Assembly: GCA_003173855.1 (NCBI GenBank)
Contig: PPGI01000008.1
Coordinates: forward strand, 10,119-74,118
Direction of reading: 5' to 3'
Source: Candidatus Zambryskiibacteriota bacterium
Lineage (GTDB): Bacteria > Patescibacteriota > Minisyncoccia > Phycocordibacterales > DATDWN01
Length of the DNA stretch: 64,000 nt
Shown here: positions 1,121-16,317 of the stretch, piece by piece
Numbering within the stretch: the first letter of the stretch is position 1
Layout of the letters: the number at the start of each line of letters is the position of its first letter
Program-made: the position numbers and the translations under genes
The notes under the pieces: generated by a model
Seen by the model: only the letters and a program-made list of their open reading frames with translations
What the model was told of the DNA's origin: nothing
The model's database searches: none

Positions 1121-1135
1121 TTTTGTTTCTAAAAA

Positions 1136-1170
1136 GGCTCGACGAACATTAGTTCATCGAGCCAATTTTG
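1136..1170. terminator. Bidirectional hairpin terminator between rpsG and a convergent small gene
   Basis: ggctcgacgaac...gttcatcgagcc 12-bp stem with one mismatch, then AATTTTG. Confidence 0.5.
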
Positions 1171-1180
1171 TGGAAGACAT

Positions 1181-1402
1181 TTAGACCATCTCAAAATCTG
1201 CAGGGTCGAGAGGCTCAGTTTCTCTCCCGACATAGAGATGAGAGACTTCTCCATTCTGCAGGTCGCATTCGTTGATCTCGATTTTTTCTCCTGATTCCTT
1301 GTTTCTCACAGTTATTGGTCTCAAGAGTTCAATACGAAAGTTTGGCTTGCCCTTAACCTTCAACAGGCCGCCGGCTTTTTTTATCAAGTCAATTTCTGTC
1401 AT
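1181..1402 (-). CDS. Hypothetical 73-aa protein inserted antisense between rpsG and fusA
   Basis: ORF with a canonical SD (GGAGG, 4 nt before ATG) and its own TTGCAA-N17-TAAAAAT promoter. No recognisable family. Confidence 0.4.
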   Translation of the reverse strand: MTEIDLIKKAGGLLKVKGKPNFRIELLRPITVRNKESGEKIEINECDLQNGEVSHLYVGRETEPLDPADFEMV

Positions 1403-1507
1403 ATAACCTCCACAGTATTTTTATCATTGAAAGTACGTAATTGCAACGAAAGGGCTTTTAGTATATAGTTTGACTATTCCGTTTCGGAAATTTTTTTTAC
1501 TTAAAAT

Positions 1508-3649
1508 ATGAATCGCGACTACACATTAGAAAAAGTCAGAAATTTCGGAATTATTGCCCATATTGATGCTGGTAAAACGACGACTTCAGAACGTGTGCTT
1601 TTTTATACTGGAATGACTCACAAAATCGGAGAAGTGCACGAAGGTGAAACTGTTACTGATTGGATGGAGCAGGAGCGAGAGCGAGGCATCACCATTACGG
1701 CTGCTGCCATTACTTGTTTTTGGAATCCGACCTATATGGCAAAGGGGGCAAAGCCAGAATACCGATTTAATATTATTGATACTCCTGGACACATCGACTT
1801 TACTGCTGAAGTAAAGAGATCACTCCGAGTTCTTGACGGTGCTGTTGTAGTTTTTGATGGAGTTGCGGGAGTTGAACCACAATCAGAAACTAACTGGCGA
1901 TATGCCGATGACGGGAATGTGCCTCGAATTTGTTTTATTAACAAACTTGATCGTACAGGAGCTTCATTTGAAAGATCATATGCTTCGATTCTCGATCGTC
2001 TTACAAAAAATGCTGTCCGAGTTCAAATTCCGATTGGCCTAGAAGACAAACACGAAGGAGTGATTGATCTTTTGAAAATGAAAGCTTTTTATTTTGAGGG
2101 AAATATGGGAATGGCAATTCGCGAAGCAGAAATTCCACCAGAACTTGTTGATGATGCTAAAAAATTCCGAGGAGAATTGATTGAAAAAATTGTCGAACAA
2201 GATGACAGCTTAATGTCTGCATATCTTGAAGGCAAGGAACCAACTTTGGATGAATTAAAAACAACCCTTCGCAAGGCAACTCTTGCAGTAAAACTTGTAC
2301 CAGTTTTTGCAGGTAGTGCTTTAAAAAATAAAGGAGTTCAGCTTGTGCTCGATGGTGTTGTTGATTATCTACCTTCTCCACTTGATATTCCTCCAGTTCA
2401 CGGTATTGATCCGAAAACAGGTGAAGAAATTTTCCGTTCTGCCTCTGACACTGAGCCTTTCTCAGCTTTGGCATTCAAACTTCAGAATGATCCATTCGTC
2501 GGACAATTAACTTTCTTTAGAGTTTATTCTGGAACAATTGAAGCAGGTACTTATGTATATAACGCAACTACAAGTGAAAAAGAACGCCTTGGACGTATTG
2601 TTAGATTGCAAGCTGACAAGCGAGAAGAAGTGAAAAAAGTTTTTGCAGGAGAAATTGCTGCCGCTGTCGGATTAAAATCAGCAAAGACATCTCACACACT
2701 TTGTGATGAAAATAATCCAATTATTTTGGATCCGATTAAATTCGTTGATCCAGTTGTCTCTCTTAGAATTGAGCCAAAAACAAAAGCCGACCAGGAAAAA
2801 ATGGGTATGGCTTTGAAAAAACTTTCTGACGAAGATCCAACTTTTAAAATTTCTTCAAACTCTGACACAGGCGAGTCAATTATTTCTGGAATGGGTGAAT
2901 TACACTTGGAAATCATGGTTGATCGAATGAAGCGCGAATTCGGCGTTGAAGTAAATGTTGGCAAACCTCAAGTTGCATATCGTGAGACAATTCTTGGAAC
3001 TGCTGATGCAGAAAATAAGTACATCAAGCAAACTGGTGGAAAAGGCCAATATGGTCACGTAAAGATTACTCTTAAGCCAATGGAAAAACTGGAGGAAGGT
3101 GCAAAAATTCCTAAAAATGTTAAACGCTATGAAGATTTTGAATTCATTGATTCGATTAAAGGAGGTGTTATTCCACAAGAATTTATTCCAGCAGTTGAAA
3201 AGGGAGTTCATGAAGCAATGGATCGTGGAATTGTGGCTGGATACAAAATGGTCAATGTTTCTTGTGAACTGACTTTCGGTTCATATCATGATGTCGACTC
3301 ATCTGAAATCGCTTACAAAATTGCAGCTTCTCAGGCTTTCCAAGATGCAGCAAAGCGAGCAAAACCTGTTATTTTAGAGCCTATTATGAAAGTTGAAGCA
3401 GTTATGCCAGAGCAATTCATGGGAGATGTTACCGGTTCACTTTCAGGAAAGCGCGGACAAATCGAAGGAATGGATGAGAGGGGAATGCTTCGCGTAATTC
3501 ATGCAAAAGTTCCGCTTTCTGAAATGTTTGGATACACAACTGATATTCGATCAATGACACAAGGACGCGGTTCGGTGATGATGGAGTTTGATCATTACGA
3601 AGTGGTGCCATCTAACGTTGAGAAGCAAATTGTAGAGTCACGGAAATAA
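1508..3649 (+). CDS. fusA: Elongation factor G
   Basis: 713 aa; GTP-binding motifs AHIDAGKTT, DTPGH, NKLD; EF-G domain order. Confidence 0.97.
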   Translation: MNRDYTLEKVRNFGIIAHIDAGKTTTSERVLFYTGMTHKIGEVHEGETVTDWMEQERERGITITAAAITCFWNPTYMAKGAKPEYRFNIIDTPGHIDFTAEVKRSLRVLDGAVVVFDGVAGVEPQSETNWRYADDGNVPRICFINKLDRTGASFERSYASILDRLTKNAVRVQIPIGLEDKHEGVIDLLKMKAFYFEGNMGMAIREAEIPPELVDDAKKFRGELIEKIVEQDDSLMSAYLEGKEPTLDELKTTLRKATLAVKLVPVFAGSALKNKGVQLVLDGVVDYLPSPLDIPPVHGIDPKTGEEIFRSASDTEPFSALAFKLQNDPFVGQLTFFRVYSGTIEAGTYVYNATTSEKERLGRIVRLQADKREEVKKVFAGEIAAAVGLKSAKTSHTLCDENNPIILDPIKFVDPVVSLRIEPKTKADQEKMGMALKKLSDEDPTFKISSNSDTGESIISGMGELHLEIMVDRMKREFGVEVNVGKPQVAYRETILGTADAENKYIKQTGGKGQYGHVKITLKPMEKLEEGAKIPKNVKRYEDFEFIDSIKGGVIPQEFIPAVEKGVHEAMDRGIVAGYKMVNVSCELTFGSYHDVDSSEIAYKIAASQAFQDAAKRAKPVILEPIMKVEAVMPEQFMGDVTGSLSGKRGQIEGMDERGMLRVIHAKVPLSEMFGYTTDIRSMTQGRGSVMMEFDHYEVVPSNVEKQIVESRK

Positions 3650-3818
3650 TTTCTTACTCACTGCATTTCTCGAAGAGACCGTTTCGCTCCGCCAGCGCTA
3701 CGCTCACTAGTTCTCGGCTTTCCGACTTGTCAATGAGCCAGCAAGCTGGACGTTGACAAGACCGAGCTCTCGGCCTGCGAAGTCTCTCCTCGAAACGCAG
3801 TTCGACGAAATTATTTTC
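3642..3818 (+). repeat. GC-rich palindromic MITE-like repeat, copy A (terminal inverted repeats (TIRs) overlap the fusA stop codon)
   Basis: ~95% identical to the reverse complement of 51752..51920. The outer TIRs (gaaataatttc...gaaattattttc) bracket a GC-rich core (3667..3795) containing nested palindromes (ccgagagctcgg; cttgtcaa...ttgacaag). Confidence 0.65.
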
Positions 3819-3881
3819 TTGCTTTTTCATCTTTTAATTTGGGGAAAAGTTGGGCAAAACTTAGCTATTTGCATAAAATTT

Positions 3882-3890
3882 AAATGATAT
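3882..3890 (+). promoter_or_regulatory. Extended -10 promoter element (TGaTATAAT) 10 nt before the ATG at 3900
   Basis: TGnTATAAT match. This implies a very short or leaderless mRNA for the 410-aa ORF. Confidence 0.35.
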
Positions 3891-3899
3891 AATTTATGC

Positions 3900-5132
3900 A
3901 TGAGTACTTCTGTTGCCGAACAAGGTGTCGGTAGAAAAGATAATTATTTAGATATTTTGCATAGGCAGGCTGATGGCCCAGAGTACAAAATTCCTATTAA
4001 GAAAATTGATTTTCGTACGTTACGCAAGCCGACAGATATTGATCCTTTACCTCAAGAAAAAGAAGCCATATCTCCAGAAGAGAAATCAGGAGTAATTTTT
4101 GAAAGTACAGTTTCAAGTCAAAGTTATAAAACACCAAACAAATTAATTGAATATATAAATATTTTAATAAAAGAGAATAGACCTCTCAAAGGTCTGCGGT
4201 GGGATATAGAAGAAGCAAAGTCGCTTGATGAAATAGTCAGTCGACTAACAAAAACAAATTTATTGTCGAAAGAAGAATGTGATGAAGCTATTTCATGCTG
4301 CCAATATCCCAATAAAGAAATTAAATTACATGTTGCATATACTGATCCACATCATGAAAGCACAGATCTGACTTTAGCAAGAAAAGAATACGTTGAAGCA
4401 CTCGTTCCATATTTAAAGAAACTTGAAGAGAAAAAAATTTCTTATCGAAAATTGATGCAAGGTCTCGGTGCTCAAAAAGACATGCCTTTGCCAGGTGAAC
4501 CCAAGGAGCTTGTTAATGCACGAAATGATTATTATAAGGCTAGGAATAAAGATAAAAAATCAAGTGGCCAAATTGAAAAAATCTACGATATCATGGAAGT
4601 TTCAAATCTTCGCCAAGAGATTCTCGCTCTCCAAAGTGAAAGGACGCAAATCTTTATTGATAGAGCAAATAAAAAATGGGAAAAAATTTCAAGAATTGAT
4701 AATGTAAATGTTCTCACAGCATTACTTAGCGATCTAACTTTTTTGTCATATGTTCCTCCAAAAGATGAAAATTATGTTGGTCTTCGTCCAGAAAAAATAA
4801 ATATTCAAGAAGTTATAGAAGAAAAACCTGTTGAAACCAAATCAGAAGTAGTAGAAGAAAAACAAGAGCCAAAGGCAGATCATGCTATTCAGATTTCAAA
4901 TCTGACATTTGATGACAAACCTCTTCAAGTTATTCTAAATACAGATGCCGAACCACAAACTATTCAAGTAATATTTAATGATAATGAAATTGCTTCTGGT
5001 ACGTTGACAAGGAAGGGGCCAAGTATTAAAGTTCATTCCCGTTATAAAGCAGGATTCCTATTGGCAAAGACCATGGAAGAAAAAGCTTTTGAAAACGCGA
5101 ATTCTCTTATAATCAAGAATTTCAAAATCTAA
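3900..5132 (+). CDS. Hypothetical 410-aa cytoplasmic protein inserted between fusA and tuf
   Basis: Long ORF with no transmembrane segment or known motif; coiled-coil-like segment (EILALQSERTQIFIDRANKKWEK). Confidence 0.55.
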   Translation: MSTSVAEQGVGRKDNYLDILHRQADGPEYKIPIKKIDFRTLRKPTDIDPLPQEKEAISPEEKSGVIFESTVSSQSYKTPNKLIEYINILIKENRPLKGLRWDIEEAKSLDEIVSRLTKTNLLSKEECDEAISCCQYPNKEIKLHVAYTDPHHESTDLTLARKEYVEALVPYLKKLEEKKISYRKLMQGLGAQKDMPLPGEPKELVNARNDYYKARNKDKKSSGQIEKIYDIMEVSNLRQEILALQSERTQIFIDRANKKWEKISRIDNVNVLTALLSDLTFLSYVPPKDENYVGLRPEKINIQEVIEEKPVETKSEVVEEKQEPKADHAIQISNLTFDDKPLQVILNTDAEPQTIQVIFNDNEIASGTLTRKGPSIKVHSRYKAGFLLAKTMEEKAFENANSLIIKNFKI

Positions 5133-5428
5133 TGAATATTTTATCAAAGGATATAGTTAAAGAATGGAATATATCCAGTTTGCCGGAAGCAAAACAACAA
5201 GAAATGATTGATCGCATTGGTCGCATAATGTACCAAGCGATTTTGGTGAAATCTTTGGATATTCTTTCTCAAGATGAACAAGATGAACTCGATCAATTAC
5301 TCAATGTTGATTCAACAACTCCACAAGAAGTTTTATTGTTTTTGAAATCAAAAATTCCGACATTTGAACAGTTGGTAATAGAGGAGAGAAAAAATCTAAA
5401 AGAAGATTTGGTTATCGAAAACATCTAA
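5132..5428 (+). CDS. Hypothetical 98-aa acidic protein
   Basis: ORF overlapping the upstream stop (TAATG). No recognisable family. Confidence 0.45.
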   Translation: MNILSKDIVKEWNISSLPEAKQQEMIDRIGRIMYQAILVKSLDILSQDEQDELDQLLNVDSTTPQEVLLFLKSKIPTFEQLVIEERKNLKEDLVIENI

Positions 5429-5431
5429 GGC

Positions 5432-5460
5432 TTGACAGATATTCGCACTTTGTCTACTAT
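5432..5460 (+). promoter_or_regulatory. Promoter TTGACA-N17-TACTAT for tuf
   Basis: Exact TTGACA (5432-5437), 17-nt spacer, TACTAT (5455-5460). Confidence 0.55.
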
Positions 5461-5473
5461 TTAATTTGTCGCA

Positions 5474-5496
5474 CAGGCGATTTTTTTAATCGCCTG
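5474..5496 (+). promoter_or_regulatory. Hairpin in the tuf leader (caggcgat-TTTTTTTA-atcgcctg)
   Basis: 8-bp perfect stem. Shares the 14-mer GCGATTTTTTTAAT with the rplC leader hairpin at 8488..8509. Confidence 0.4.
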
Positions 5497-5597
5497 GAAA
5501 TTCCCAGAATTCAACGATATATAAGTTTCTCGAACGCTGAATTTTTGGAGTTTCCAAAATGGCAAAAGTTTATTATTAGCATTAATTAAAAAATATT

Positions 5598-6794
5598 ATG
5601 GCTGAGTTCGATCGTTCAAAGCCACATGTGAATGTGGGAACAATTGGTCACGTTGACCACGGTAAGACAACATTAACAGCAGCAATTTTGACTGTACTTG
5701 GACGCGCAGGCCAAGGCTTCGGCGCAAAAGTAAAAGGAGTTGATCAAATTGACTCTGCTCCTGAAGAAAAAGCACGAGGAATTACTATCGCGCTTTCTCA
5801 CAATGAGTACGAGACACCTACAAGACACTACGCTCACGTAGATGCTCCTGGACACGCTGACTATATTAAAAACATGATCACTGGTGCCGCTCAGATGGAC
5901 GGTGCAGTATTGGTAGTTGCCGCAACAGACGGTGTTATGCCTCAAACACGAGAGCACGTACTTTTGGCAAAACAAGTTGGTGTGCCAAAGATTATCGTTT
6001 TCCTAAACAAATGCGATATGGTGCCTGACAAAGAACTCATTGATTTGGTTGAGGAGGAAGTTCGAGAGCTCCTTACAAAACAAGGTTTCGATGGTGCAGG
6101 TGCTCCAGTTATTCGAGGTTCAGGTCTTAAAGCTCTTGAGTCAAAAGACAATAATGACGAATGGGCAGCAAAAATTCTAGAACTTGCAAACGCATTGGAT
6201 ACTTATTTCCCAATTCCAGAGAGAGATCTTGAAAAGCCATTCCTTATGCCAGTTGAAGACATTTTCTCAATCGAAGGACGAGGAACTGTGGTAACTGGAA
6301 GAATTGAACGAGGAATCGTAAAAGTTGGTGAAGAAGTAGAGTGTATTGGTTTGAAAGATACAGCAAAATACACTGTTACTGGTATTGAAATGTTCAACAA
6401 ATCACTTCAAGAAGGCCAGGCTGGAGACAACGCTGGAATTCTTCTTCGAGGTGCTAAAAAAGAAGACATTCATCGAGGACAAGTTTTGGCAAAGCCAAAG
6501 ACTGTAACTCCTCACACAGAATTTATGGCAGAAGTTTACATTCTAAAGAAAGAAGAAGGTGGACGACACACAGCATTCGTTACAGGTTACAAACCACAAT
6601 TCTACATTCGAACTACAGACGTAACAGGAGAAGTTTCTCTAAACGAAGGTGTTGAAATGGTTATGCCAGGAGACACAGTTACTTTCAAAGTTAAACTTGT
6701 TGCTCCAGTTGCTCTAGAAGAGAAGACTCGATTTGCGATCCGCGAGGGTGGTAAGACAGTCGGCGCAGGAGTTGTAACAAAAATCCTCGCTTAG
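5598..6794 (+). CDS. tuf: Elongation factor Tu
   Basis: 398 aa; [18 protein letters not shown] motifs. Confidence 0.98.
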
Positions 6795-6920
6795 TAAACT
6801 TCCAAATTTAGCGATCTCCTTGTTTCGAGTTTGAAAATGTTCGTCACTTTACTACTTGTAAAGCTTCTCACATTTTCAAACTCTCAACTTCGGATCTCAT
6901 CTAAATTCTGAAAGTTTAGA
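6795..6920 (+). repeat. Conserved ~125-nt structured 3'-UTR element, copy M1 (begins TAAACTTCCAAATTT at the tuf stop codon)
   Basis: Alignable to the element after rplB (11088..11210). Central hairpin ctttac-tactt-gtaaag (6847..6863) shows compensatory changes relative to ccttac/gtaagg in the other copies. Confidence 0.55.
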
Positions 6921-6922
6921 AA

Positions 6923-6947
6923 AATACCGCACTCGCGGTATTTTTTC
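6923..6947 (+). terminator. Rho-independent terminator after tuf (taccgcactcgcggta + T6)
   Basis: Perfect hairpin followed by TTTTTT. Confidence 0.7.
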
Positions 6948-7022
6948 CCTTACAGGGACTGTACACCTTTCGCACATAACAGTGCTCAAGGTCTTGCGAA
7001 GCTTCGCTTCTCACGCCTAACA

Positions 7023-7051
7023 TTGCATTCAAAATTGAAATTTTTTATAAT
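7023..7051 (+). promoter_or_regulatory. Promoter TTGCAT-N17-TATAAT driving a GC-rich non-coding unit
   Basis: Consensus -35 and -10 with a 17-nt spacer. No ORF >=60 aa in 6795..7378. Confidence 0.5.
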
Positions 7052-7057
7052 ACTAAA

Positions 7058-7338
7058 TGGAGCAGTCGACACACAACCACGCTGAAGTAAGCGAAACGGC
7101 ACTATGAAACGAGATCTCGGCCTCCGGAAGTTTCAAGCCAGCAAAGCGTGTGTGGGAGAGCAGCGAATCTGCTCGTTACATACCTCACAGTAGGCACGCA
7201 CCCCATGTGTCGGGGACTCGTTGAGAGCCGCAGTAGTGACTTCTCCATCGTCCGCATCGGTAGAAAACCAAATCGGTTTCTCCGAGGCGGTTTTCTTTTA
7301 TACTTTACCCCGTACTGAGCTTTGCTCTAGTACTGGGG
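7058..7338 (+). ncRNA. Candidate structured non-coding RNA (~280 nt, GC ~55%) between tuf and rpsJ
   Basis: GC-rich island in an AT-rich genome, with no ORF. It has its own consensus promoter and ends in a hairpin (ccccgtact...agtactgggg, 7308..7338). Identity unknown; it did not match my recall of RNase P, SRP or 6S RNAs. Confidence 0.3.
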
Positions 7339-7367
7339 TTGAACAAAATTTAAATCTCTGTTAGTAT
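7339..7367 (+). promoter_or_regulatory. Promoter TTGAAC-N17-TAGTAT for rpsJ
   Basis: TTGAAC (7339-7344), 17-nt spacer, TAGTAT (7362-7367), 11 nt before the ATG. Confidence 0.55.
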
Positions 7368-7378
7368 CGAGCTTACAA

Positions 7379-7807
7379 ATGCCAACAGCAAAAAAGGAAC
7401 CAAAAGCAAAAAAAGCAGCAGCTCCTAAAAAAACTGCAGCAAAAACTCCTGCAAAAGCTGCTGCTCCAAAGGTTACAAAAGCTAAAGCAGCTCAAGATGT
7501 TATTTCAAAGCTACGAATCCGAGTTCGAGCTTACGAATACAAAATCTTAGATCTTTCAGTAAAACAAATTATCGATACAGCACTTCGATATGATGCAAAA
7601 GTTGAAGGCCCTATTCCACTTCCAACAGAACACAAAAAATATACTGTAAACCGATCATCATTCGTTTACAAAAATGCTAGGGAACAATTTGAAATGAGAA
7701 TTCACAAGCGATTGATTGATATTTTAAATCCTACACCAAAAATCATGGAGGCTCTTACAAATATGTCTTTGCCTAGCGGAGTTAACATCGACGTAAAAAT
7801 AATTTAA
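7379..7807 (+). CDS. rpsJ: 30S ribosomal protein S10 with an ~45-aa Lys/Ala-rich N-terminal extension
   Basis: C-terminal ~100 aa match S10 (RIRVRAYEYKILD...HKRLIDIL). The N-terminus (AKKEPKAKKAAAPKKTAAKTPAKAAAPK) is histone-H1-like. Confidence 0.9.
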   Translation: MPTAKKEPKAKKAAAPKKTAAKTPAKAAAPKVTKAKAAQDVISKLRIRVRAYEYKILDLSVKQIIDTALRYDAKVEGPIPLPTEHKKYTVNRSSFVYKNAREQFEMRIHKRLIDILNPTPKIMEALTNMSLPSGVNIDVKII

Positions 7808-7810
7808 AGA

Positions 7811-7842
7811 CGAAACCACCTCACGATGAGGTGGTTTTGGTA
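7811..7842. terminator. Bidirectional terminator (accacctcacgatgaggtggt + TTTT)
   Basis: 8-bp perfect stem plus T-run, between rpsJ and a convergent membrane ORFan. Confidence 0.65.
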
Positions 7843-9945: not shown

Positions 9946-9958
9946 TTGGAAAAATAAC

Positions 9959-10237
9959 ATGAAAGATTTAAACCGAGTTTTAATACGACCACGAGTTACA
10001 GAAAAGGCGACACTAGTCACTGAAAATTCAGTCTACACTTTTGTAATTGATCCAAAAGCTACTGTATATCAAGTCAAAAAAGCTTTCGTTGATCGATATA
10101 AATTTGTGCCAGTAAAAATCAATACAGTTACAATTCCAGCAAAAAAAGTTTTTGTTCGAGGAAAATCCGGAATGAAATCTGGTTACAAGAAAGCTTATGT
10201 TTATTTAAAGAAAGGAGACAAAATAGAAAATCTATAA
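9959..10237 (+). CDS. rplW: 50S ribosomal protein L23
   Basis: 92 aa; L23-like; position. Confidence 0.9.
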   Translation: MKDLNRVLIRPRVTEKATLVTENSVYTFVIDPKATVYQVKKAFVDRYKFVPVKINTVTIPAKKVFVRGKSGMKSGYKKAYVYLKKGDKIENL

Positions 10238-10250
10238 AAATATAAACAGC

Positions 10251-11090
10251 ATGAAAAGATACCGACCAACATCAAAATCACGCCGACAGATGACAACCAT
10301 TTCATTTGGTGATTTCATTACCACAAATGACCCAGTCAAGTCATTGACTCATGGCTATAAACGACAAATGGGCCGAAGTCATGGTGAAATAACTACTCGA
10401 CACAAAGGAGGCGGTCACAAGAGACTTTTCCGCGAAGTTGATTTTCTATACGACAAAATAAATATTCCTTACACAATCAAAACTGTTGAATACGACCCAA
10501 ACCGATCAGGTTTTATCGGACTTGCTCAATATGCTGATGGTGAAAAAAGATATGTTCTTGTTCCTCGAGGAATTAAAGTAGGGGAAACATTTTTAACTAG
10601 TGAAACTGCTGAACCAAAAACTGGAAATCGATTGCCTCTAAAAAACATAAATATTGGTACTTTTGTTTACAACGTAGAAATAAAACCAAATGGCGGAGCT
10701 AAACTTGCTCGATCTGCCGGAAACTATATTGAAGTTATTGCTAAAGATGGAGGAATGATTGATCTAAAAATGCCTTCAACTGAAGTTCGCAAAGTTCCAG
10801 AAACAGCTTGGGCATCTATCGGTGATGTTTCAAACAACGAAAACAGATTGGTAAATCTTGGTAAAGCTGGACGTTCACGATGGCTTGGAATCAGGCCTAC
10901 AGTTCGCGGTACAGCAATGAACCCTGTTGATCACAAATACGGTGGAGGAGAAGGCCGTCAGGGAAGAGGAACAAGACGTGCGATTTCTATTTATGGTAAG
11001 CCAACAGGTAAGGGTCAGAAGTCTAGAACTCCTAAGAAGTATTCGAATAAGTTTATTGTTTCTCGCCGACGCGTTGGCAAGCAACGCTAA
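10251..11090 (+). CDS. rplB: 50S ribosomal protein L2
   Basis: 279 aa; conserved L2 C-terminal region (GGGEGRQGRG...). Confidence 0.96.
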   Translation: MKRYRPTSKSRRQMTTISFGDFITTNDPVKSLTHGYKRQMGRSHGEITTRHKGGGHKRLFREVDFLYDKINIPYTIKTVEYDPNRSGFIGLAQYADGEKRYVLVPRGIKVGETFLTSETAEPKTGNRLPLKNINIGTFVYNVEIKPNGGAKLARSAGNYIEVIAKDGGMIDLKMPSTEVRKVPETAWASIGDVSNNENRLVNLGKAGRSRWLGIRPTVRGTAMNPVDHKYGGGEGRQGRGTRRAISIYGKPTGKGQKSRTPKKYSNKFIVSRRRVGKQR

Positions 11091-11210
11091 ACTTCCAAAT
11101 TTGGCGAACTCCTCGTTACCAAATTAAAAATACTCGTCACCTTACATTTGTAAGGCTCCTCGCATTTTTATTTCTCACGTCGGATTTCATCCAAATCTGA
11201 TAATTTTAGG
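11088..11210 (+). repeat. Conserved structured 3'-UTR element, copy M2 (TAAACTTCCAAATTT overlaps the rplB stop)
   Basis: Alignable to 6795..6920; contains hairpin ccttac-attt-gtaagg at 11140..11155. Confidence 0.55.
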
Positions 11211-11258
11211 GCGACCAAATCGGTCGCCTTTGACATTTAAAATTTTTTGTGATTAAAT
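11209..11258 (+). promoter_or_regulatory. Terminator/promoter module: hairpin GGGCGACC..GGTCGCC, then TTGACA-N17-TTAAAT
   Basis: Hairpin 11209..11228; TTGACA 11230..11235; -10 at 11253..11258; GAGGAG SD before the ATG at 11278. Confidence 0.55.
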
Positions 11259-11277
11259 ATACGCAGAGGAGTGAGAA

Positions 11278-11568
11278 ATGAATTCAACTTGTTACTTTTG
11301 CAAAAAACCTGGTCAATTTCGGAAAATGACCCTTTCTTCTCAATTAGGGAGCTGGGCCCCTGAACTGGGTCCCATTGATCACGTAGATGTTCACTCTCAT
11401 TGTTATTTTTGGCGGGCTAAACTTCCTGAAATAGGAATGGTAGTACCTGGTCTTCTGGTTTATGTCGGATTTTTTTTGAAATCAGAAACCATGGTAATAT
11501 ATACCATGTCCTTGGCTTTGCTTTTTGCGGGATGGGGTCTATACAACAGATTTCGTTTCAATTTCTAG
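11278..11568 (+). CDS. Hypothetical 96-aa protein (C-terminal hydrophobic segment) inserted between rplB and rpsS
   Basis: ORF with strong SD, own promoter and downstream terminator. No family recognised. Confidence 0.35.
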   Translation: MNSTCYFCKKPGQFRKMTLSSQLGSWAPELGPIDHVDVHSHCYFWRAKLPEIGMVVPGLLVYVGFFLKSETMVIYTMSLALLFAGWGLYNRFRFNF

Positions 11569-11574
11569 TGTGTA

Positions 11575-11624
11575 GGGCGGCAAAGTAGCCGCCCTTTGAC
11601 ATTTAAAAAATGAAGAATAGAGTT
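11575..11624 (+). promoter_or_regulatory. Terminator/promoter module: hairpin GGGCGGC..GCCGCCC, then TTGACA-N16-TAGAGT
   Basis: Hairpin 11575..11594; TTGACA 11596..11601; AAAGGAG SD before the ATG at 11660. Confidence 0.5.
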
Positions 11625-11659
11625 AATAATAGAGCCATTTTGACAGAAAGGAGTTTCTT

Positions 11660-12004
11660 ATGTGGGAAAGGCAAGCGTTTTTGGAAAAATTACTCAAGGC
11701 CTCGGAACAAGTAATAAAAATATCATCGAGGAGAGAGAAATTCACTTGGGCCGATATTTCTGCTAAGGCTGAAAGGAGTGTTGGCCTGCCTGTAGTTTGT
11801 CCGAATTCTCCACAAAAGTATCATCCAGTGGAGGAAGCTATCGAAACTCTTGCTCGTCATGGTCGTATAAAGCAAAAAATCAAAAGAGATCTATTCTGGG
11901 GTCCACTTATGACTTTGGAGGATCTTCAAAAGATCGAAGAAGCATGGCAACATGTTACAAGACCTTCAAAGATTCTTGAGGTTAAACTTCAGATTGCGTC
12001 CTGA
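11660..12004 (+). CDS. Hypothetical 114-aa protein inserted between rplB and rpsS
   Basis: ORF with strong SD; ends with tandem stops TGA-TAA. No family recognised. Confidence 0.4.
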   Translation: MWERQAFLEKLLKASEQVIKISSRREKFTWADISAKAERSVGLPVVCPNSPQKYHPVEEAIETLARHGRIKQKIKRDLFWGPLMTLEDLQKIEEAWQHVTRPSKILEVKLQIAS

Positions 12005-12012
12005 TAACTAAG

Positions 12013-12062
12013 GGCGGCGAATTGCGCCGCCCTTTGACATTTATAGGCAATTTGTATAGTAT
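12013..12062 (+). promoter_or_regulatory. Terminator/promoter module: hairpin GGGCGGCG..CGCCGCCC, then TTGACA-N17-TAGTAT
   Basis: Hairpin 12013..12033; TTGACA 12034..12039; TAGTAT 12057..12062. Confidence 0.55.
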
Positions 12063-12127
12063 AGGCCCTAAGTTAAGAGCCATTACCTCTAACTTGGTTT
12101 TGTTCGCGGTATTCAGTCAAGTCAGAT

Positions 12128-12153
12128 ACCACAAACAATGTGGTTTTTGTTTT
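12128..12153 (+). promoter_or_regulatory. Terminator-like hairpin in the rpsS leader (accaca-aacaa-tgtggt + TTTTTGTTTT)
   Basis: Perfect 6-bp stem plus T-run, 15 nt before the rpsS ATG. Possible attenuator. Confidence 0.35.
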
Positions 12154-12167
12154 GAACAAATTAAAAT

Positions 12168-12518
12168 ATGACACGTTCAAGCTATAAGGGCCCATATGTC
12201 GATCCTCGTCTATTGAAGAAGATCGAAGGAAAAAAGCATCTGGAAACAGGGGTTATTAAAACTTGGTCACGTGCATGTGTCATTTCTCCGGAAATGGTAG
12301 GCTTCACCTTCGGCGTCCACAATGGCAAGACCCATTTGGACGTTTTAGTTTCTGAAGACATGGTGGGCCATCGACTTGGCGAGTTTGCTCCGACAAAGAA
12401 ATTCATCAAACACGGAGGAAAGATGCAGAAAGAACTGGAACAAAAGAAGAAAGAGGGTGAAATTGCTGCTGCTCAAGCTGCAAAAACTGTAACAGAAGGA
12501 ACTGCAGCTAAAAAATAA
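12168..12518 (+). CDS. rpsS: 30S ribosomal protein S19 with a Lys/Glu/Ala-rich C-terminal extension
   Basis: The first ~90 aa match S19 (GPYVD...NGKTH). ~25-aa tail. Confidence 0.93.
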
Positions 12519-12529
12519 TAAGAACTACT

Positions 12530-12979
12530 ATGGCAACCGCTCAGGCAACACTAGGAAATTTTAGACAAGCACCTCGTAAAATGAGGATGGTTGCCAATAC
12601 AGTTAGAGGAAAAAAAGTTTCTGATGCTTTGGTTAATTTGGATTTCGTTGCAAAGAAGGCAGCATTTCCAATAAAAACTTTGCTTCTTTCTGCACTAGCT
12701 AATGCAAAAAATCTTGGCATTCCAACTGACAATTTGGTAGTCAAGAAAATTACAGTTGATGGCGGCAGCATTTTATACAGACGTCGACCAGCGGCCCGTG
12801 GCAGTGCTCATCCAATAAGGAAGCGAACATCAAGTGTTTTTATTGAATTAGGAGAACCAGAAACAAAAGTAAACAGTGAACAGGCAAGTGTAAAAATTCC
12901 AAAAGAAAAAACTGTAAAGACTGAAAAACACAAGGTCGAAAGAAAATCACGTTCAAAAAAGTCGACTGTTAACTCATAA
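12530..12979 (+). CDS. rplV: 50S ribosomal protein L22 with a basic C-terminal extension
   Basis: L22-like core; ~40-aa tail. Confidence 0.9.
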   Translation: MATAQATLGNFRQAPRKMRMVANTVRGKKVSDALVNLDFVAKKAAFPIKTLLLSALANAKNLGIPTDNLVVKKITVDGGSILYRRRPAARGSAHPIRKRTSSVFIELGEPETKVNSEQASVKIPKEKTVKTEKHKVERKSRSKKSTVNS

Positions 12980-12987
12980 CTATTTAT

Positions 12988-13644
12988 ATGACACACCAAG
13001 TCCACCCATATTCACATAGGTTAGGAATCATAAGAGATTGGAAATCTCGCTGGTTTGGCGTGAAAAATAAATACAAAGAATTTCTAAAAAGTGATGTGCT
13101 TTTGCGAGAATATTTAGAAAAAAAATTGCGAGGAAATTATGTTTCAAATATTGAAATGGAGAGAGGAGAAAAAATTCTTCGAATAATTATTGAAACTTCT
13201 CGACCAGGTATGATCATCGGACGATCAGGGGATGGAGCTGTAAAACTTAAAAACGATGTTCTCTCATATCTTCGAAAAAATAAACTTTCATCAGGAGGCG
13301 AAGTAAAAATTGATATCAAAGAAGTAAAATCCCCTGAATCAAATGCAATGATTGCTGCACAAATGATTGCTGATGGTTTAGAGAAAAGACTTCCATTCAG
13401 ACGCGTTGGCAAACAAATGCTGGAAAAAGTTATTGCCAATCGAGATGTTTCAGGAGTAAAAATCGAGCTTTCTGGCCGACTTGCCGGAGCTACAATGGCC
13501 CGAAAAGAAAAATTAAAGAAAGGACGAATTCCATTGCAAACTTTCCGAGCAGATGTAGATTTTGCTCGATATGAAGCTAGACTGCCATACGGCGGAATTG
13601 GAATAAAAGTTTGGATATACAAAGGAGAAATTTTTAAAAAATAA
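12988..13644 (+). CDS. rpsC: 30S ribosomal protein S3
   Basis: 218 aa with KH domain; S3-like sequence. Confidence 0.93.
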   Translation: MTHQVHPYSHRLGIIRDWKSRWFGVKNKYKEFLKSDVLLREYLEKKLRGNYVSNIEMERGEKILRIIIETSRPGMIIGRSGDGAVKLKNDVLSYLRKNKLSSGGEVKIDIKEVKSPESNAMIAAQMIADGLEKRLPFRRVGKQMLEKVIANRDVSGVKIELSGRLAGATMARKEKLKKGRIPLQTFRADVDFARYEARLPYGGIGIKVWIYKGEIFKK

Positions 13645-13645
13645 A

Positions 13646-14071
13646 ATGTTAATTCCAAAAAAAGTTAAATATAGGAAATGGCATACATTTCGAAAGAACG
13701 CGGACAAAGTCGGTGTAGCTACTCGTGGAACAACTGTTGCTTTTGGTTCACATGGATTGAAGGCACTTGCTGGAGCACGTATCATGTCAAATCAACTTGA
13801 GGCCGCACGAAAAGCCTTGTCACGAGAGGTGGGTAAAACTGGCCGAGTCTGGATTCGAGTTTTTCCTGATATGCCGCTTACTAAAAAACCTGCTGAAGTA
13901 AAGCTTGGAAAAGGTAAGGGAGATTTGTTCGGATACTGTGCGCCAGTGAAACCAGGTCGAGTTATTTTTGAAGTCGATGGGGTAAGTGATTCAGTAGCTC
14001 GAGAATCGCTTCGCAAAGCTGGAACAAAATTGCCAGTAAAAACAAAAGTGATCGCATCTCATCACCAATAA
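13646..14071 (+). CDS. rplP: 50S ribosomal protein L16
   Basis: 141 aa; L16-like. Confidence 0.93.
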   Translation: MLIPKKVKYRKWHTFRKNADKVGVATRGTTVAFGSHGLKALAGARIMSNQLEAARKALSREVGKTGRVWIRVFPDMPLTKKPAEVKLGKGKGDLFGYCAPVKPGRVIFEVDGVSDSVARESLRKAGTKLPVKTKVIASHHQ

Positions 14072-14081
14072 AAAAATAGAT

Positions 14082-14273
14082 ATGAAAAAGCAAATGAAAG
14101 AATTGAATAAGAAAAGTCCAAAGGAATTGGAAACAACGCTAAAAGAAAAGCGAGGAGCTTTGAGAAATTTTCGATTTCAAACTTCTGGAAGCAATGCAAA
14201 AAATGTGAAAGCTGGCCTTGCGCTTCGCAAAGATATCGCAAGAATTCTCACACTTCTAAATAACAAGAAATAA
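14082..14273 (+). CDS. rpmC: 50S ribosomal protein L29
   Basis: 63 aa; position and L29-like helix. Confidence 0.85.
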   Translation: MKKQMKELNKKSPKELETTLKEKRGALRNFRFQTSGSNAKNVKAGLALRKDIARILTLLNNKK

Positions 14274-14274
14274 A

Positions 14275-14535
14275 ATGGCAAAAGCTGCAGTACAAAATAA
14301 TAAAGTAGAGTCAAGAAAAAAAACAATGACTGGTGTTGTTGTTTCCGACAAAATGAAAGACACTGTTGTTGTTTTGGTTGATCGTTATGTTAAACACCCA
14401 AAGTATGGTAAATACATTGCGAAATCGAAGAAATTTAAAGCCCAAGATGCAGGAAACACAAAGAAAATAGGCGACAAAGTCATGATTGAGGAATGCGCAC
14501 CGATTTCAAAAGATAAACATTTTAAAGTAATTTAA
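14275..14535 (+). CDS. rpsQ: 30S ribosomal protein S17
   Basis: 86 aa; S17-like. Confidence 0.9.
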   Translation: MAKAAVQNNKVESRKKTMTGVVVSDKMKDTVVVLVDRYVKHPKYGKYIAKSKKFKAQDAGNTKKIGDKVMIEECAPISKDKHFKVI

Positions 14536-14540
14536 CTATC

Positions 14541-14918
14541 ATGGTACAACCACGTTCAATCGTTAAAATAGCTGACAACTCCGGAGGAAAAATCGGACGT
14601 GTGTTCAAGGTGCTTGGTTCATCAAAAAAGCGATATGCTTCGATTGGCGAGCTTGTGGTGATTTCAATACAAAAGGCAGAACCTCGAAAATCTACAAAGA
14701 AAAAAGATGTTGTTCGTGCAATTGTTGTCAGGCAGAAAGCTCCGTTTCGACGAAAAGATGGTTCATACATTCGATTTGATGAAAATGCAGTAGTTCTCGT
14801 AATGAAAGATGCAAAGAAAAAAGAACCTGTAGCTGGACGTGTTTTCGGCCCAATTCCTCGAGAAATTGGTGATGCTGGATATCAGAAGATTATTTCTCTT
14901 GCACCAGAGGTGGTTTAA
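14541..14918 (+). CDS. rplN: 50S ribosomal protein L14
   Basis: 125 aa; L14-like. Confidence 0.95.
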   Translation: MVQPRSIVKIADNSGGKIGRVFKVLGSSKKRYASIGELVVISIQKAEPRKSTKKKDVVRAIVVRQKAPFRRKDGSYIRFDENAVVLVMKDAKKKEPVAGRVFGPIPREIGDAGYQKIISLAPEVV

Positions 14919-14927
14919 AACAAAAAC

Positions 14928-15149
14928 ATGCACGTAAAAAAAGACGACAAAGTAATAGTTTTAACAGGAAAAGACAAGGGCAAAACTGGTACAGTGGTTA
15001 AAGCATTTCCAAAAATAAACAAGGTAATTGTTTCTGGCGTAAATATTTTAAAAACTCATCAAAAGCCACGACGCGGAGGAGAGAAGGGTCAAATAATTGA
15101 TAAAACAATGCCGATTCACGCTTCCAACGTAAGAAAGACTGGAAAATAA
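14928..15149 (+). CDS. rplX: 50S ribosomal protein L24
   Basis: 73 aa; KOW motif; position. Confidence 0.9.
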
Positions 15150-15150
15150 T

Positions 15151-15765
15151 ATGAAATCGATAAAAGAAAAAATAAAAGAATCCTACAAATCACTTTCCGG
15201 CGATCTAGGTTTGAAAAATGTGATGCAAGCTCCAAGAATCGAAAAAGTTGTAGTTTCAACTGGCGTTGGCTCTATTAAGGATAAGAAAAAACTTGATTTG
15301 GTTGAAGATAGACTTTCAAAAATCACTGGCCAAAAACCAGTGCGAAAAGGTGCAAAAGTTTCAATTTCTGCTTTTAAAGTTCGACAAGGAGAAACAGTTG
15401 GTATGCAAATAACTCTTCGAGGACAAAGAATGTACGATTTTCTAGATAGATTAATTAATATTGCACTTCCGCGAACAAAAGATTTTAGAGGTATTTCAGC
15501 ACGAGGCGTAGATGAAATGGGAAACTATACTGTTGGCATTAGAGAGCATACAATTTTCCCTGAAACATCAGACGAAGATCTCCGAGATGTTTTCGGGCTC
15601 TCAGTTACAGTTGTTACAAATCTTCGTGATCCAAAACAAACTCGAAAATTTTTAGAATATCTAGGCTTTCCATTTAAAAAAGTTGAAACTGGCAAAGAAG
15701 AGACGATTTCTATAATTACTGTGGCGAAGAAAGAGGATAAGAAAAAGAAAGCAAAAGTAGCGTAG
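15151..15765 (+). CDS. rplE: 50S ribosomal protein L5 (with a Lys-rich C-terminal tail)
   Basis: 204 aa; L5-like. Confidence 0.93.
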   Translation: MKSIKEKIKESYKSLSGDLGLKNVMQAPRIEKVVVSTGVGSIKDKKKLDLVEDRLSKITGQKPVRKGAKVSISAFKVRQGETVGMQITLRGQRMYDFLDRLINIALPRTKDFRGISARGVDEMGNYTVGIREHTIFPETSDEDLRDVFGLSVTVVTNLRDPKQTRKFLEYLGFPFKKVETGKEETISIITVAKKEDKKKKAKVA

Positions 15766-15825
15766 TTGATTTTTTCTATTTTTCGTATTTAATATGCTAG
15801 GAAGTTTTTTTGAAAGGAGCTAATA

Positions 15826-16245
15826 GTGATTGTATTGCTTTTGGCAGTAGCAGCATTAGTGTGGTTTCTCAGTCTTGTAACCAGAAGAAAGAGACGTCTA
15901 AAGCGCCTCAAGTTCCTAAGAAATGCCAGGTTTCAAGAGAAAATGTTTGGTGAACATTTTCTCAACATGGCACTTGAGAAACAAAAGGATATCAGGTGTT
16001 GGGTAATTTATAAGCACTATCCTTGGGGACATGGCTACAAAGTTCGTTTGGAAGATTTATGTGAACCAGACGATATACTTTCTGTAGTCGTGAACTTTTC
16101 TTTTCCAGAGAAGAAAAGAATTGCCATGGGGCTTTATTCTGACTACAGATATTTCTCAACCAGTCGAAATTCTCTCGATCGGGCAACAGAAGAGTTTGAA
16201 AGACGATTGATGCATTTGGTTTACGAAACTCAACGGGTACCTTAG
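15826..16245 (+). CDS. Hypothetical 139-aa protein (N-terminal transmembrane helix) inserted between rplE and rpsZ; GTG start
   Basis: AAGGAG SD 7 nt before the GTG; followed by the hairpin-promoter module. No family recognised. Confidence 0.45.
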   Translation: MIVLLLAVAALVWFLSLVTRRKRRLKRLKFLRNARFQEKMFGEHFLNMALEKQKDIRCWVIYKHYPWGHGYKVRLEDLCEPDDILSVVVNFSFPEKKRIAMGLYSDYRYFSTSRNSLDRATEEFERRLMHLVYETQRVP

Positions 16246-16282
16246 GTACCCGTTTGACTTAATATGGCTTCACTGCTAGTAT
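16234..16282 (+). promoter_or_regulatory. Terminator/promoter module: hairpin cgggtaccttaggtacccg, then TTGACT-N17-TAGTAT
   Basis: Hairpin 16234..16252 spans the stop codon; TTGACT 16254..16259; TAGTAT 16277..16282. Confidence 0.55.
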
Positions 16283-16288
16283 AAAGCG

Positions 16289-16310
16289 CGACTCGAAAGA
16301 GTGCTTTTTC
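16289..16310 (+). promoter_or_regulatory. Leader hairpin with GAAA tetraloop plus T5 in the rpsZ 5' UTR; attenuator-like
   Basis: gcgactc-GAAA-gagtgc followed by TTTTT, 8 nt before the ATG. Confidence 0.35.
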
Positions 16311-16317
16311 ATTAAAA

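Follow-up and report, generated by a model that had tools for sequence, protein, structure and literature searches.

The ribosomal-protein gene array of a Candidatus Zambryskiibacteriota bacterium, a reduced-genome groundwater organism of the Parcubacteria/Paceibacteria group, appears to be split into separately promoted units, with tolerated slots between them for accessory genes confined to the clade, which are passed on by descent, change fast, and at times give way to others. This reading, which on balance we consider probable, concerns the rpsL-to-secY array at positions 240-20168 on the plus strand of a 64,000-nucleotide (nt) stretch of contig PPGI01000008.1, the whole of which is referred to here as the window. 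Arrays of this type are a standard example of gene order frozen by selection, and they serve as a backbone for the phylogenomics and binning of metagenome-assembled genomes (MAGs). An original prediction, made from the same DNA, had described small "ORFan" genes at six junctions of the array and had proposed that the array is transcribed as at least seven units.

The genes keep the canonical str-S10-spc order, all on the plus strand: rpsL (240-650), rpsG (653-1120), fusA, tuf, rpsJ, rplC, rplD, rplW, rplB, rpsS, rplV, rpsC, rplP, rpmC, rpsQ, rplN, rplX, rplE, rpsN, rpsH, rplF, rplR, rpsE, rplO, and secY. Their names were assigned from translations judged by eye and from tblastn comparisons to relatives (65-92% identity), with a Pfam scan of rpsJ only. 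The gene for L30 is absent between rpsE and rplO, as is usual in bacteria of the candidate phyla radiation (CPR). Operon genes classically abut each other, with neither internal promoters nor foreign genes between them, and this is not what is found at six wide junctions, namely rpsG|fusA (388 nt), fusA|tuf (1949 nt), tuf|rpsJ (585 nt), rpsJ|rplC (782 nt), rplB|rpsS (1078 nt), and rplE|rpsN (553 nt). These gaps house one GC-rich non-coding unit, at tuf|rpsJ, and eight open reading frames (ORFs), all of which are present where the original prediction had located them: A73 at rpsG|fusA, B410 and C98 at fusA|tuf, D88 and E70 at rpsJ|rplC, F96 and G114 at rplB|rpsS, and H139 at rplE|rpsN.

The same break points recur in related genomes. 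A scan based on L2 recovered 80 loci from Zambryskibacteria, Paceibacterota, and Parcubacteria MAGs (best L2 identity 84%), and all window proteins were mapped onto these loci to obtain junction spacings, which are given here for the 23 closest. The same six junctions are expanded among these loci. The fusA|tuf junction measures 1.7-4.2 kb in 12 of 12 close loci, rplB|rpsS ranges from 141 to 3080 nt, and rpsJ|rplC from 142 to 1641 nt, while more than 150 nt separate rplE from rpsN in 16 of 19 loci and tuf from rpsJ in 14 of 21. The control junctions rplC|rplD, rpsS|rplV, and rpsN|rpsH are tight in the close loci. In farther relatives regular expansion is confined to fusA|tuf and rplB|rpsS. The latter junction holds four conserved families in these genomes (L027-L073), including a 231-amino-acid (aa) membrane protein and a protein of about 190 aa, and two of the four resemble L10 and L7/L12 when judged by eye. 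A break of the S10 operon at rplB|rpsS thus appears widespread in the order.

Promoter-like sequences stand at the head of the ribosomal blocks. The motif TTGNNN-N17-TA[GCA]TAT occurs seven times in the 64 kb, always on the plus strand (202, 5432, 7339, 8454, 12034, 16254, and 20893), and these sites lie directly upstream of rpsL, tuf, rpsJ, rplC, rpsS, rpsN, and map, respectively. The original prediction of a fresh TTGACA-N17-TAGTAT promoter before every ribosomal unit is therefore right as to promoter-like sites but not as to their sequence, since the exact motif is found only before rpsS (12034-12062) and the rest are variants. Putative promoters on the plus strand read TTGCAA-N17-TAGTAT for rpsL (202-230, which would also serve rpsG), TTGCAA-N17-TATAGT for fusA (1441-1469, seen in five of nine loci including the window), TTGACA-N17-TACTAT for tuf (5432-5460), TTGAAC-N17-TAGTAT for both rpsJ (7339-7367, 11 nt from its ATG) and rplC (8454-8482), and TTGACT-N17-TAGTAT for rpsN (16254-16282). 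Relatives carry TTGACT-N17-TA(C/A)TAT about 140 nt upstream of tuf in approximately 10 of 19 cases, TTGAAT-N17-TAGTAT about 106 nt upstream of rplC in approximately 8 of 22, and TTGAC(T/A)-N17-TAGTAT before rpsN in approximately 11 of 18. The rpsS promoter is exact in 18 of the 23 close relatives, in which it is almost the sole such site per 20-kb locus, and because of this conservation the split is probably ancestral.

Four of the putative promoters are followed by a leader with a hairpin and T-run, all on the plus strand: the fusA leader at 1470-1507 (hairpin and T-run at 1477-1497), the conserved tuf leader of about 137 nt at 5461-5597 (5468-5487), the conserved 106-nt rplC leader at 8483-8588 (8487-8510), and the 105-nt rpsS leader at 12063-12167, which has a terminator-like hairpin ACCAC...GTGGTTTTT at 12128-12150. 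In the rpsS leader of relatives the hairpin ACCAC...GUGGUUUUU and its U-run are invariant in 15 of 15, accompanied by conserved ACGCCAC and GGUAU...GUACC boxes; RNAalifold recovered only the invariant terminator stem of this leader, with no covariation for a larger fold. The hairpins of these four leaders are candidate attenuator-like elements. BLASTN comparisons of the gaps found conserved non-coding DNA in promoter-plus-leader segments and in a hairpin repeat of about 120 nt described below, and nothing further. Rfam searches at gathering and permissive thresholds (positions 1-17000 and 6780-7400) returned nothing credible for the leaders, the repeats, or the GC-rich unit.

Most of the inserted genes also appear to have signals of their own. 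A putative minus-strand promoter for A73 (TTGCAA-N17-TAAAAA, within 1403-1507) uses the palindromic -35 element TTGCAA of fusA, a shared layout that is kept in one relative (L083) and adjacent in another (L084). The fusA and A73 promoters would therefore stand back to back, such that polymerase binding one way would exclude binding the other way. Promoter-like sequences also lie upstream of D88 on the minus strand (TTGACA-N17-TAATCT) and upstream of H139 on the plus strand (TTGATT-N18-TAATAT). The signals of F96 and G114 are copies of a hairpin-plus-TTGACATTTA module (repeat family D14), with copy 1 at 11207-11242 (+) upstream of F96 and copy 2 at 11573-11608 (+) upstream of G114, where it reads TTGACA-N16-TAGAGT; the third copy (12010-12167) is the rpsS promoter region itself. 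Hairpins surround most inserts (1136-1163, 7813-7838, 8423-8447, 11209-11229, 11575-11595, 12013-12032, and 16233-16249). The first of these lies between the stop codons of rpsG and A73 and is terminator-like on the minus strand only, where it has a T-run, the plus-strand side being followed by AATTTT. The hairpin at 7813-7838 is common to D88 and the 3' end of rpsJ, and GGGTACC...GGTACCC at 16233-16249 (+) overlaps the H139 stop. The claim that every insert carries its own promoter and terminator is hence only roughly right, as the hairpin scan found no terminator between C98 and the tuf promoter, nor between rplE and H139.

The small ORFs rise above chance mainly because of their Shine-Dalgarno sites, their homologs, and the ratio of nonsynonymous to synonymous substitution rates (dN/dS), length being of less help. 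Taken by itself, length sets just two ORFs clearly apart from chance, B410 (P<0.001) and H139 (P=0.001); it is marginal for G114 (0.05), for A73 (0.10), and for the mechanical ORF of 106 aa around D88 (0.065). All six small ORFs (A73, D88, E70, F96, G114, and H139) have GGAGG, AGGAG, or GGGAGG placed 4-6 nt ahead of the start, with duplex energies of -7.2 to -10.5 kcal/mol. Such energies are near 0 for the ribosomal genes and reach -7 or lower in only 4 of 34 other window genes and in 5% of random 20-mers. Over the 34 non-ribosomal window genes (240-62933; the 16S gene lies outside the window) the median duplex energy with the anti-Shine-Dalgarno sequence is about 0, and judged on these gene starts the genome would be Shine-Dalgarno-poor. 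Tsurumaki et al. (2022, PMC9297842) report that just 48% of Parcubacteria have a detectable anti-Shine-Dalgarno motif. The Shine-Dalgarno sites of the small ORFs are kept in their homologs in other genomes.

Composition and conservation give a more graded picture. Under a three-periodic Markov model that was trained on 56 genes of the window, coding scores are host-like for B410, E70, and C98, about zero for A73, ambiguous for D88, and negative but still the best of six frames for G114, H139, and F96. When a library of 1.84 billion representative proteins was searched without an index, A73, E70, G114, and H139 each matched themselves (99-100%), and true homologs were found for A73, E70, and H139; D88 and F96 had zero matches in this library, their own sequences included. 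These four matched proteins and C98 thus already figure among the called proteins of public collections. Synonymous sites are saturated in the families of A73 and H139, yet their members still share 42-51% of amino acids (21-23% for the farthest H139 homolog, on L039), and the nonsynonymous rate is 0.45-0.54. The C98 homologs share 59-74% amino-acid identity. Where it could be computed, dN/dS is 0.07-0.22 in these three families, with the synonymous rate saturated, and such values indicate purifying selection on the A73, C98, and H139 families.

Homologs of most inserts occupy the same junction in other genomes. A73 (1181-1402, minus strand; 73 aa, acidic, pI 5.1) is divergent from fusA and is led by a GGAGG Shine-Dalgarno site. 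One homolog (P0009, about 41-43% identity) lies antisense between rpsG and fusA on L084, which belongs to the same MAG as L007, and a second (P0008, 49%) is divergent from fusA on L083. B410 (3900-5132, plus strand; 410 aa) has no Shine-Dalgarno site, and because a TATAAT lies at 3888-3893, only 6 nt ahead of its ATG, the sequence suggests a near-leaderless start. Its homologs were found in 18 loci, always between fusA and tuf wherever the fetched locus includes fusA, with lengths of 381-1047 aa and up to about 1800 aa in an iterated search. A peptide-pattern scan of genome contigs for B410 gave zero matches, although tblastn on the L2-fetched loci gave these 18 homologs, and pattern scans therefore miss such divergent families.

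The neighboring C98 (5132-5428, plus strand; 98 aa, acidic) begins in an ATGA overlap with B410, to which it is predicted to be translationally coupled. Its homologs stand immediately upstream of tuf in each of 28 related loci, and a protein search found 46. Against DUF5663 (PF18908) C98 itself scores 13.5 bits (E=0.11, model positions 8-82), which is below the cut-off of 23.7 bits; of its homologs, P0026 scores 21.2 bits and P0037 scores 23.7, which reaches the threshold over the full 84-position model, and many C98 homologs carry a precomputed PF18908 tag. To our knowledge DUF5663 has no known function, and so membership of C98 in this family would explain nothing of its mechanism. The predicted model of C98 has five helices at a mean confidence (pLDDT, predicted local distance difference test) of 85, and a Foldseek comparison with the PDB gave no neighbor (best E 1.7).

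Two further inserts were connected to relatives through profiles. E70 (8209-8421, plus strand; 70 aa) has a GTG start, a GGGAGG Shine-Dalgarno site, and a terminator at 8423-8447, and its family has members at rpsJ|rplC in four relatives (L001, L008, L012, L015) and one at tuf|rpsJ (L011). When a profile was built from the ORFs of those five relatives with E70 excluded, E70 was the sole further match among 6675 background ORFs (E=1.3e-5; HHalign 95%). Beyond the clade, E70 matches only L085-L089, weakly (E about 3e-4 to 7e-4), in packed arrays of 40-130-aa ORFs; the arrays of L085-L088 include a ParB_N gene, in a layout typical of phage or plasmid early regions. G114 (11660-12004, plus strand; 114 aa, helical, basic, pI 9.5; AGGAG Shine-Dalgarno site) is the top non-member for a profile of ORFs at rplB|rpsS in eight relatives (E=2.3e-3; HHalign 75%, P=2.4e-5), and its alignment with that family has an EF(L/F) helix in common at the N-terminus and an L..L..IE.AWE motif at the C-terminus. 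G114 is probably a divergent member of this small family. H139 (15826-16245, plus strand; 139 aa) has a GTG start, an AGGAG Shine-Dalgarno site, and an N-terminal membrane helix followed by a basic stretch and a small domain. Its homolog P0007 follows rplN-rplX-rplE on L082, and an iterated search adds an ORF at rplE|rpsN on L039.

The remaining two are less secure. D88 (7844-8110, minus strand; 88 aa), whose mechanical ORF extends to 8164, has a GGAGG Shine-Dalgarno site and three hydrophobic segments and is a predicted membrane protein. When it was compared by HHalign with 122 gap ORFs, the top three matches all came from the minus strand of rpsJ|rplC (P=4e-4 to 0.026), but these matches may be driven by composition, two of the three matched ORFs being hydrophobic too, and homology of D88 to relatives must be regarded as marginal. 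F96 (11278-11568, plus strand; 96 aa; AGGAG Shine-Dalgarno site) has a CxxC...HxHC pattern and a hydrophobic C-terminal half, and no homologs were found by jackhmmer, by HHalign against the 122 gap ORFs, among the 1.84 billion representative proteins, or in a metagenome scan. It is the least certain of the eight genes.

The "ORFan" label can thus be withdrawn for A73, B410, C98, E70, H139, and probably G114, all of which have homologs at the same junction. By the same token, the consistent placement at ribosomal-gene junctions that had been pointed out earlier is borne out in relatives for five to six of the eight inserts, to which the refuting condition named beforehand, a lack of homologs at these junctions in close relatives, does not apply; D88 is marginal in this comparison and F96 has no counterpart. 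The statement that no inserted protein belongs to a recognized family holds insofar as none of the eight was matched significantly in searches of Pfam, NCBIfam, PHROGs, and PADLOC, including none to type II toxin-antitoxin families in Pfam, NCBIfam, or PADLOC, but it must be tempered by the sub-threshold DUF5663 score of C98 and the 21-23.7 bits of its homologs. The further proposal of a single family of small ribosome- or translation-associated proteins is not supported, and no feature of the inserts was found to connect them with the ribosome. The eight ORFs represent at least seven unrelated families, they are acidic to neutral or membrane-like in character (pI 4.4-6.7 for A73, B410, C98, and E70; predicted membrane helices in D88, F96, and H139; only G114 both basic and soluble), which for seven of the eight speaks against ribosomal-protein character, A73 and D88 run antisense to the array, and most of the inserts would be insulated from the ribosomal genes by terminators and promoters of their own.

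The junction genes also change at a pace of their own. They share approximately 40-60% identity with their homologs, compared with 70-92% for adjacent ribosomal proteins; in L084, rpsG, fusA, and tuf are 86-92% identical to their window counterparts, and the values are 41% for A73, 59% for C98, and 26% for B410. Over all loci, 292 of 495 gap ORFs have no BLASTP partner. A Pfam scan of 68 of the 106 close-relative gap ORFs identified HicA (2), a HicB-like protein, RVT_1 (2), Cas1, N_methyl pilins (2), a response regulator, and YdjM, and the gaps of relatives also hold MazF/PemK-like, RelE-like, and TnpB-like proteins as judged by eye. Inherited families and selfish or mobile genes are found in the same gaps, and the slots therefore hold residents and also take up such cargo.

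These observations can be combined into one proposed explanation. The array would consist of seven or more short units in series (rpsL-rpsG; fusA; B410-C98; tuf; rpsJ; rplC-rplB; rpsS-rplE; and rpsN onward), each with its own sigma-70-type promoter of the form TTGNNN-N17-TAGTAT or a close variant, and most with a short leader containing a hairpin and U-run. Such a division into at least seven promoter-headed units agrees with what had been predicted, and the motifs and leaders on which it depends are conserved over approximately 20 species-level relatives. The break points would be old and common to the clade, and each would constitute a tolerated slot whose small genes have a promoter and a strong Shine-Dalgarno site to themselves, in most cases with a hairpin alongside. 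Since rearrangement of the ribosomal genes on either side is very rare, any gene arriving in a slot would be inherited in place, where it would diverge quickly and might sometimes be replaced by toxin-antitoxin pairs or retroelements. The inserts of the window itself look inherited rather than recently captured. We infer both this slot logic and an accessory, non-translation role for the proteins from sequence comparisons. The explanation addresses how the array is organized and not the molecular roles of the individual proteins.

Several considerations weigh against this explanation and must be kept in mind when it is compared with its competitors. Promoters and terminators were recognized as consensus matches and phylogenetic footprints, from which separate transcription of the units is deduced. 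The total of seven sites for the relaxed motif is near a rough chance estimate of approximately five, so that the placement alone is non-random, and a promoter scan of positions 1-20000 gave 36 sites against a shuffled expectation of 44. Read-through across the gaps is possible, most obviously from C98 into tuf and from rplE into H139, where no terminator intervenes. The relatives are MAGs, with a single genome sampled per species. D88 and F96 may not be genes, given their lack of homologs, weak coding scores, and absence of library matches. Finally, the same-junction conservation of five to six families could equally mean that these genes are functionally tied to the translation genes beside them.

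That last point leads to an alternative in which the junction genes serve the translation apparatus of this lineage as specific partners or regulators (new ribosome-associated proteins, factor chaperones, or regulators) and are kept beside the genes they work with. Many arrangements in the array would suit such a role. A73 adjoins fusA in three genomes with promoters back to back, the C98/DUF5663 proteins immediately precede tuf in 28 loci, the families of G114 and H139 lie at rplB|rpsS and rplE|rpsN, G114 is basic (pI 9.5), purifying selection is evident, and CPR ribosomes lack uL30 while some also lack uL1 or bL9 (PMC9297842). New ribosomal proteins, however, would be expected to be small, strongly basic, soluble, and RNA-binding, as well as broadly and stably conserved, and what was found is that only G114 is basic and soluble and that the families, except for that of C98, number three to nine known members and are patchy in the 23 closest loci. 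Four of the eight proteins are acidic or neutral and three have membrane helices, two lie on the strand opposite to the array, most are set apart from the ribosomal genes by their own promoters and by hairpins at their flanks, and their Shine-Dalgarno-led initiation is unlike that of the ribosomal genes. They also diverge three to five times faster than their neighbors, they are patchy among close relatives in slots that can hold unrelated cargo, and their predicted models bear no structural likeness to any ribosomal protein or factor. A partnership with translation is consequently unlikely. More doubtful still is its extended form, a clade-specific accessory translation layer, built on the -35 box common to A73 and fusA, on B410 and C98 ahead of tuf, and on the families of G114 and H139 within the former S10 and spc operons, in which the junction proteins would act as novel regulators or partners for EF-G, EF-Tu, or the reduced ribosome of CPR bacteria, and similar doubt attaches to the idea that the expression of such a layer would be wired to the state of ribosome and factor genes through promoter competition and a separate, Shine-Dalgarno-dependent initiation.

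If the inserts were instead recently captured mobile cassettes, integron-like or derived from phages or plasmids, that target these junctions, then the threefold hairpin-plus-TTGACA module bounding F96 and G114, the mobile-looking palindromic repeat in two gaps, and the weak extra-clade matches of E70 in tiny-ORF arrays with a ParB_N gene would be readily understood, as would the coding scores of A73, D88, F96, G114, and H139 below the host norm, the use of Shine-Dalgarno sites by the six small ORFs, in contrast to host genes, and the reverse transcriptase, Cas1, and one TnpB-like protein (by eye) in the gaps of relatives. Integron cassette arrays likewise have short promoter-proximal ORFs in series, bounded by repeated hairpin-containing modules. 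They differ from the present array in that here each ORF would have its own promoter, homologs occupy a fixed chromosomal junction, and no attC-like sites or direct repeats bounding the inserts were seen, although the window was not screened for an integrase. No recombinase was matched by Pfam, NCBIfam, or PADLOC among the eight inserted proteins, the only window ORFs scanned for one. The diverged same-junction homologs of five to six of the eight (21-75% identity) mark them as old residents, B410 and C98 resemble host genes in their coding statistics and lack a Shine-Dalgarno site, and duplication of the conserved promoter region of rpsS would be the simplest origin for the repeated module. 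We therefore regard recent capture as improbable for the window. The earlier suggestion of repeated cassette capture retains some value for relatives, where unrelated genes (HicAB, reverse transcriptase, Cas1, and pilins) sit in the same gaps, and it fits the history of the slots there better than it fits the residents of the window, which look inherited and show no bounding recombination site. Even less credence can be given to the proposal that the small ORFs, wholly or in part, are chance frames in non-coding spacers (promoters, leaders, and repeats) or artefacts of MAG assembly and not genes. Length alone is insignificant for A73, D88, and G114, and D88 and F96 lack positive coding scores (negative by this count), homologs, and library self-matches. 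Yet all six small ORFs have strong, well-spaced Shine-Dalgarno sites, for which the rough chance is <1e-5 at a 12% background; A73 and H139 have homologs with 40-50% amino-acid identity at saturated synonymous sites; profiles match E70 and G114; and the same gap architecture is present in dozens of independent assemblies.

Among known systems, the split array with tolerated slots most resembles the cluster alterations reconstructed by Brandis (2021, PMC8046335), who recovered 163 such events in Gammaproteobacteria and Bacilli and reported that disconnection of the cluster's operons typically begins with the insertion of a few genes between them, with transposable elements being implicated. The likeness extends to unrelated genes between blocks of translation genes, a preserved ribosomal gene order, and insertions that are inherited and sometimes lost. 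In PMC8046335 most insertions separate one classical operon from the next, with one or two in each lineage, and they involve known genes such as tusDCB, bfd-bfr, and nrdHEF. The present array, by contrast, is broken six times at once, and five of the breaks fall within the classical str, S10, and spc operons. Each break is fixed in the clade and has what looks like a conserved new promoter, and the cargo consists of unannotated, fast-evolving small genes led by Shine-Dalgarno sites. A targeted literature search found no description of array fragmentation of this kind in CPR bacteria.

In Escherichia coli and Bacillus subtilis the str, S10, and spc operons are controlled through autogenous leaders, as when L4 acts on the attenuator of the S10 leader. 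The array of the window is like these operons in its rpsL-to-secY order and in having a promoter-like site and structured leader with a terminator-like hairpin before its blocks. It differs in the number of promoter-headed blocks, at least seven as against three, in the placement of putative promoters and leaders before rplC, rpsS, and rpsN, which are classically internal genes, and in leaders that match no Rfam ribosomal-protein leader.

Two gaps of the array also contain a hairpin repeat of approximately 120 nt. One copy, of about 125 nt, lies right after the tuf stop (6795-6921, plus strand) and is followed by a terminator-like hairpin with a T-run at about 6923-6947 (+); the other starts inside the TAA stop codon of rplB (11088-11207, plus strand). 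The consensus reads ...AACTTCCAAATTTGGCGAACTCCT...CTCGTCACCTTA...TAAGGCTCCTCGCA...CGTCGGATTTCATCCAAATT...GAAAGTT, and ten further copies are found at varied junctions in relatives (L001-L022), of which eight start 3-13 nt past the upstream ribosomal gene and two are inverted, just upstream of tuf or rpsN. RNAalifold predicts 27 pairs, 15 of which have compensatory changes. A scan with the core pattern located the repeat on 32 metagenome contigs (L090-L121), near these ribosomal genes in two only, and about two-thirds of these 32 copies start no more than 5 nt from the TAA or TAG stop of a same-strand ORF. The ends look like TA-AACTTCC...GGAAGTT-TA, suggestive of a TA duplication, with TA...TA flanks in most aligned copies when inspected by eye. 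Dispersed copies, terminal inverted repeats, and a lack of coding capacity, the features of miniature inverted-repeat transposable elements (MITEs), are all found in this repeat, for which no transposase partner was identified. It looks like either a MITE-like element that abuts stop codons or a 3'-end RNA element, and it is dispersed, adding to two gaps of the window without being specific to ribosomal genes.

In being dispersed, palindromic, gene-oriented, and adjacent to stops, the repeat is like repetitive extragenic palindromic (REP) sequences and bacterial interspersed mosaic elements, enterobacterial repetitive intergenic consensus sequences, Correia elements, and MITE-like repeats. REPs are said to have been placed within 15 nt of stop codons by Liang, Rudd and Deutscher in 2015. 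The present repeat is unlike REPs in being much longer, in having ends that resemble a TA duplication, and in having no Rfam family. A second, GC-rich repeat of 124 nt occurs after fusA (3673-3796, plus strand) and at 51771-51895 (minus strand), the copies being 94-97% identical. Each lies 10-25 nt past a stop codon in the same orientation as the gene concerned (fusA, or the minus-strand gene at 51919-52653), the region around the fusA-side copy (3660-3800) has a GC content of 56.7%, and no copy was found in the loci of relatives.

The tuf|rpsJ gap (6795-7378) has no credible ORF, and the GC-rich non-coding unit predicted there is indeed present, its stretch 7058-7300 having 53.5% GC compared with 38.1% for the window overall. 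The unit (7023-7300, plus strand) comprises a promoter-like TTGCAT-N17-TATAAT at 7023-7051, the GC-rich body (7058-7250), and a long hairpin with a U-run at about 7245-7300. Comparison with L001 indicates that the terminator hairpin is conserved and the body is not, and folding z-scores are only -1.9 and -2.3. The possibility that the unit is a decayed gene was rejected after a six-frame comparison with all ORFs of 84 loci gave no meaningful match. A non-coding segment of approximately 100 nt beyond the tuf terminator (6923-7050) resembles DNA just downstream of secY in two relatives (L005, 15193-15268; L011, 19735-19836; E=4e-6 and 2.5e-5).

Some other observations on the window can be recorded here. 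Lys/Ala-rich extensions are encoded at the N-terminus of S10 (about 40 aa; 7379-7500), the N-terminus of L4 (9223-9290), and the C-termini of S19 (12440-12518) and L22 (12850-12979), and those of S10 and L4 are alike even in DNA (repeat family D6). A long run with 9-nt periodicity at about 37140-38472 encodes Gly-X-Y (collagen-like) repeats on the minus strand, and the mechanical list splits this region into minus-strand ORFs at 36757-37515 and 38094-38627. A gene for tRNA-Ile with anticodon TAT (UAU) lies at 31807-31881 on the minus strand; this tRNA is uncommon in bacteria, where AUA is usually read by a modified CAU tRNA.

There are a number of implications if the array is divided as proposed. 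The junction genes provide candidate CPR-specific proteins, including a tuf-linked DUF5663 subfamily, that might be considered for roles in translation, and the occurrence of Shine-Dalgarno-led genes at the junctions of an array whose core genes lack such sites bears on how initiation occurs in Parcubacteria. The findings also carry a warning for annotation, in that two of the eight ORFs have no library match even to themselves, and for methods based on synteny. Moreover, if breaks at six fixed points are truly clade-wide, then co-transcription of these genes would be dispensable at least in this reduced-genome lineage, and the array would offer a natural system for asking what holds operons together.

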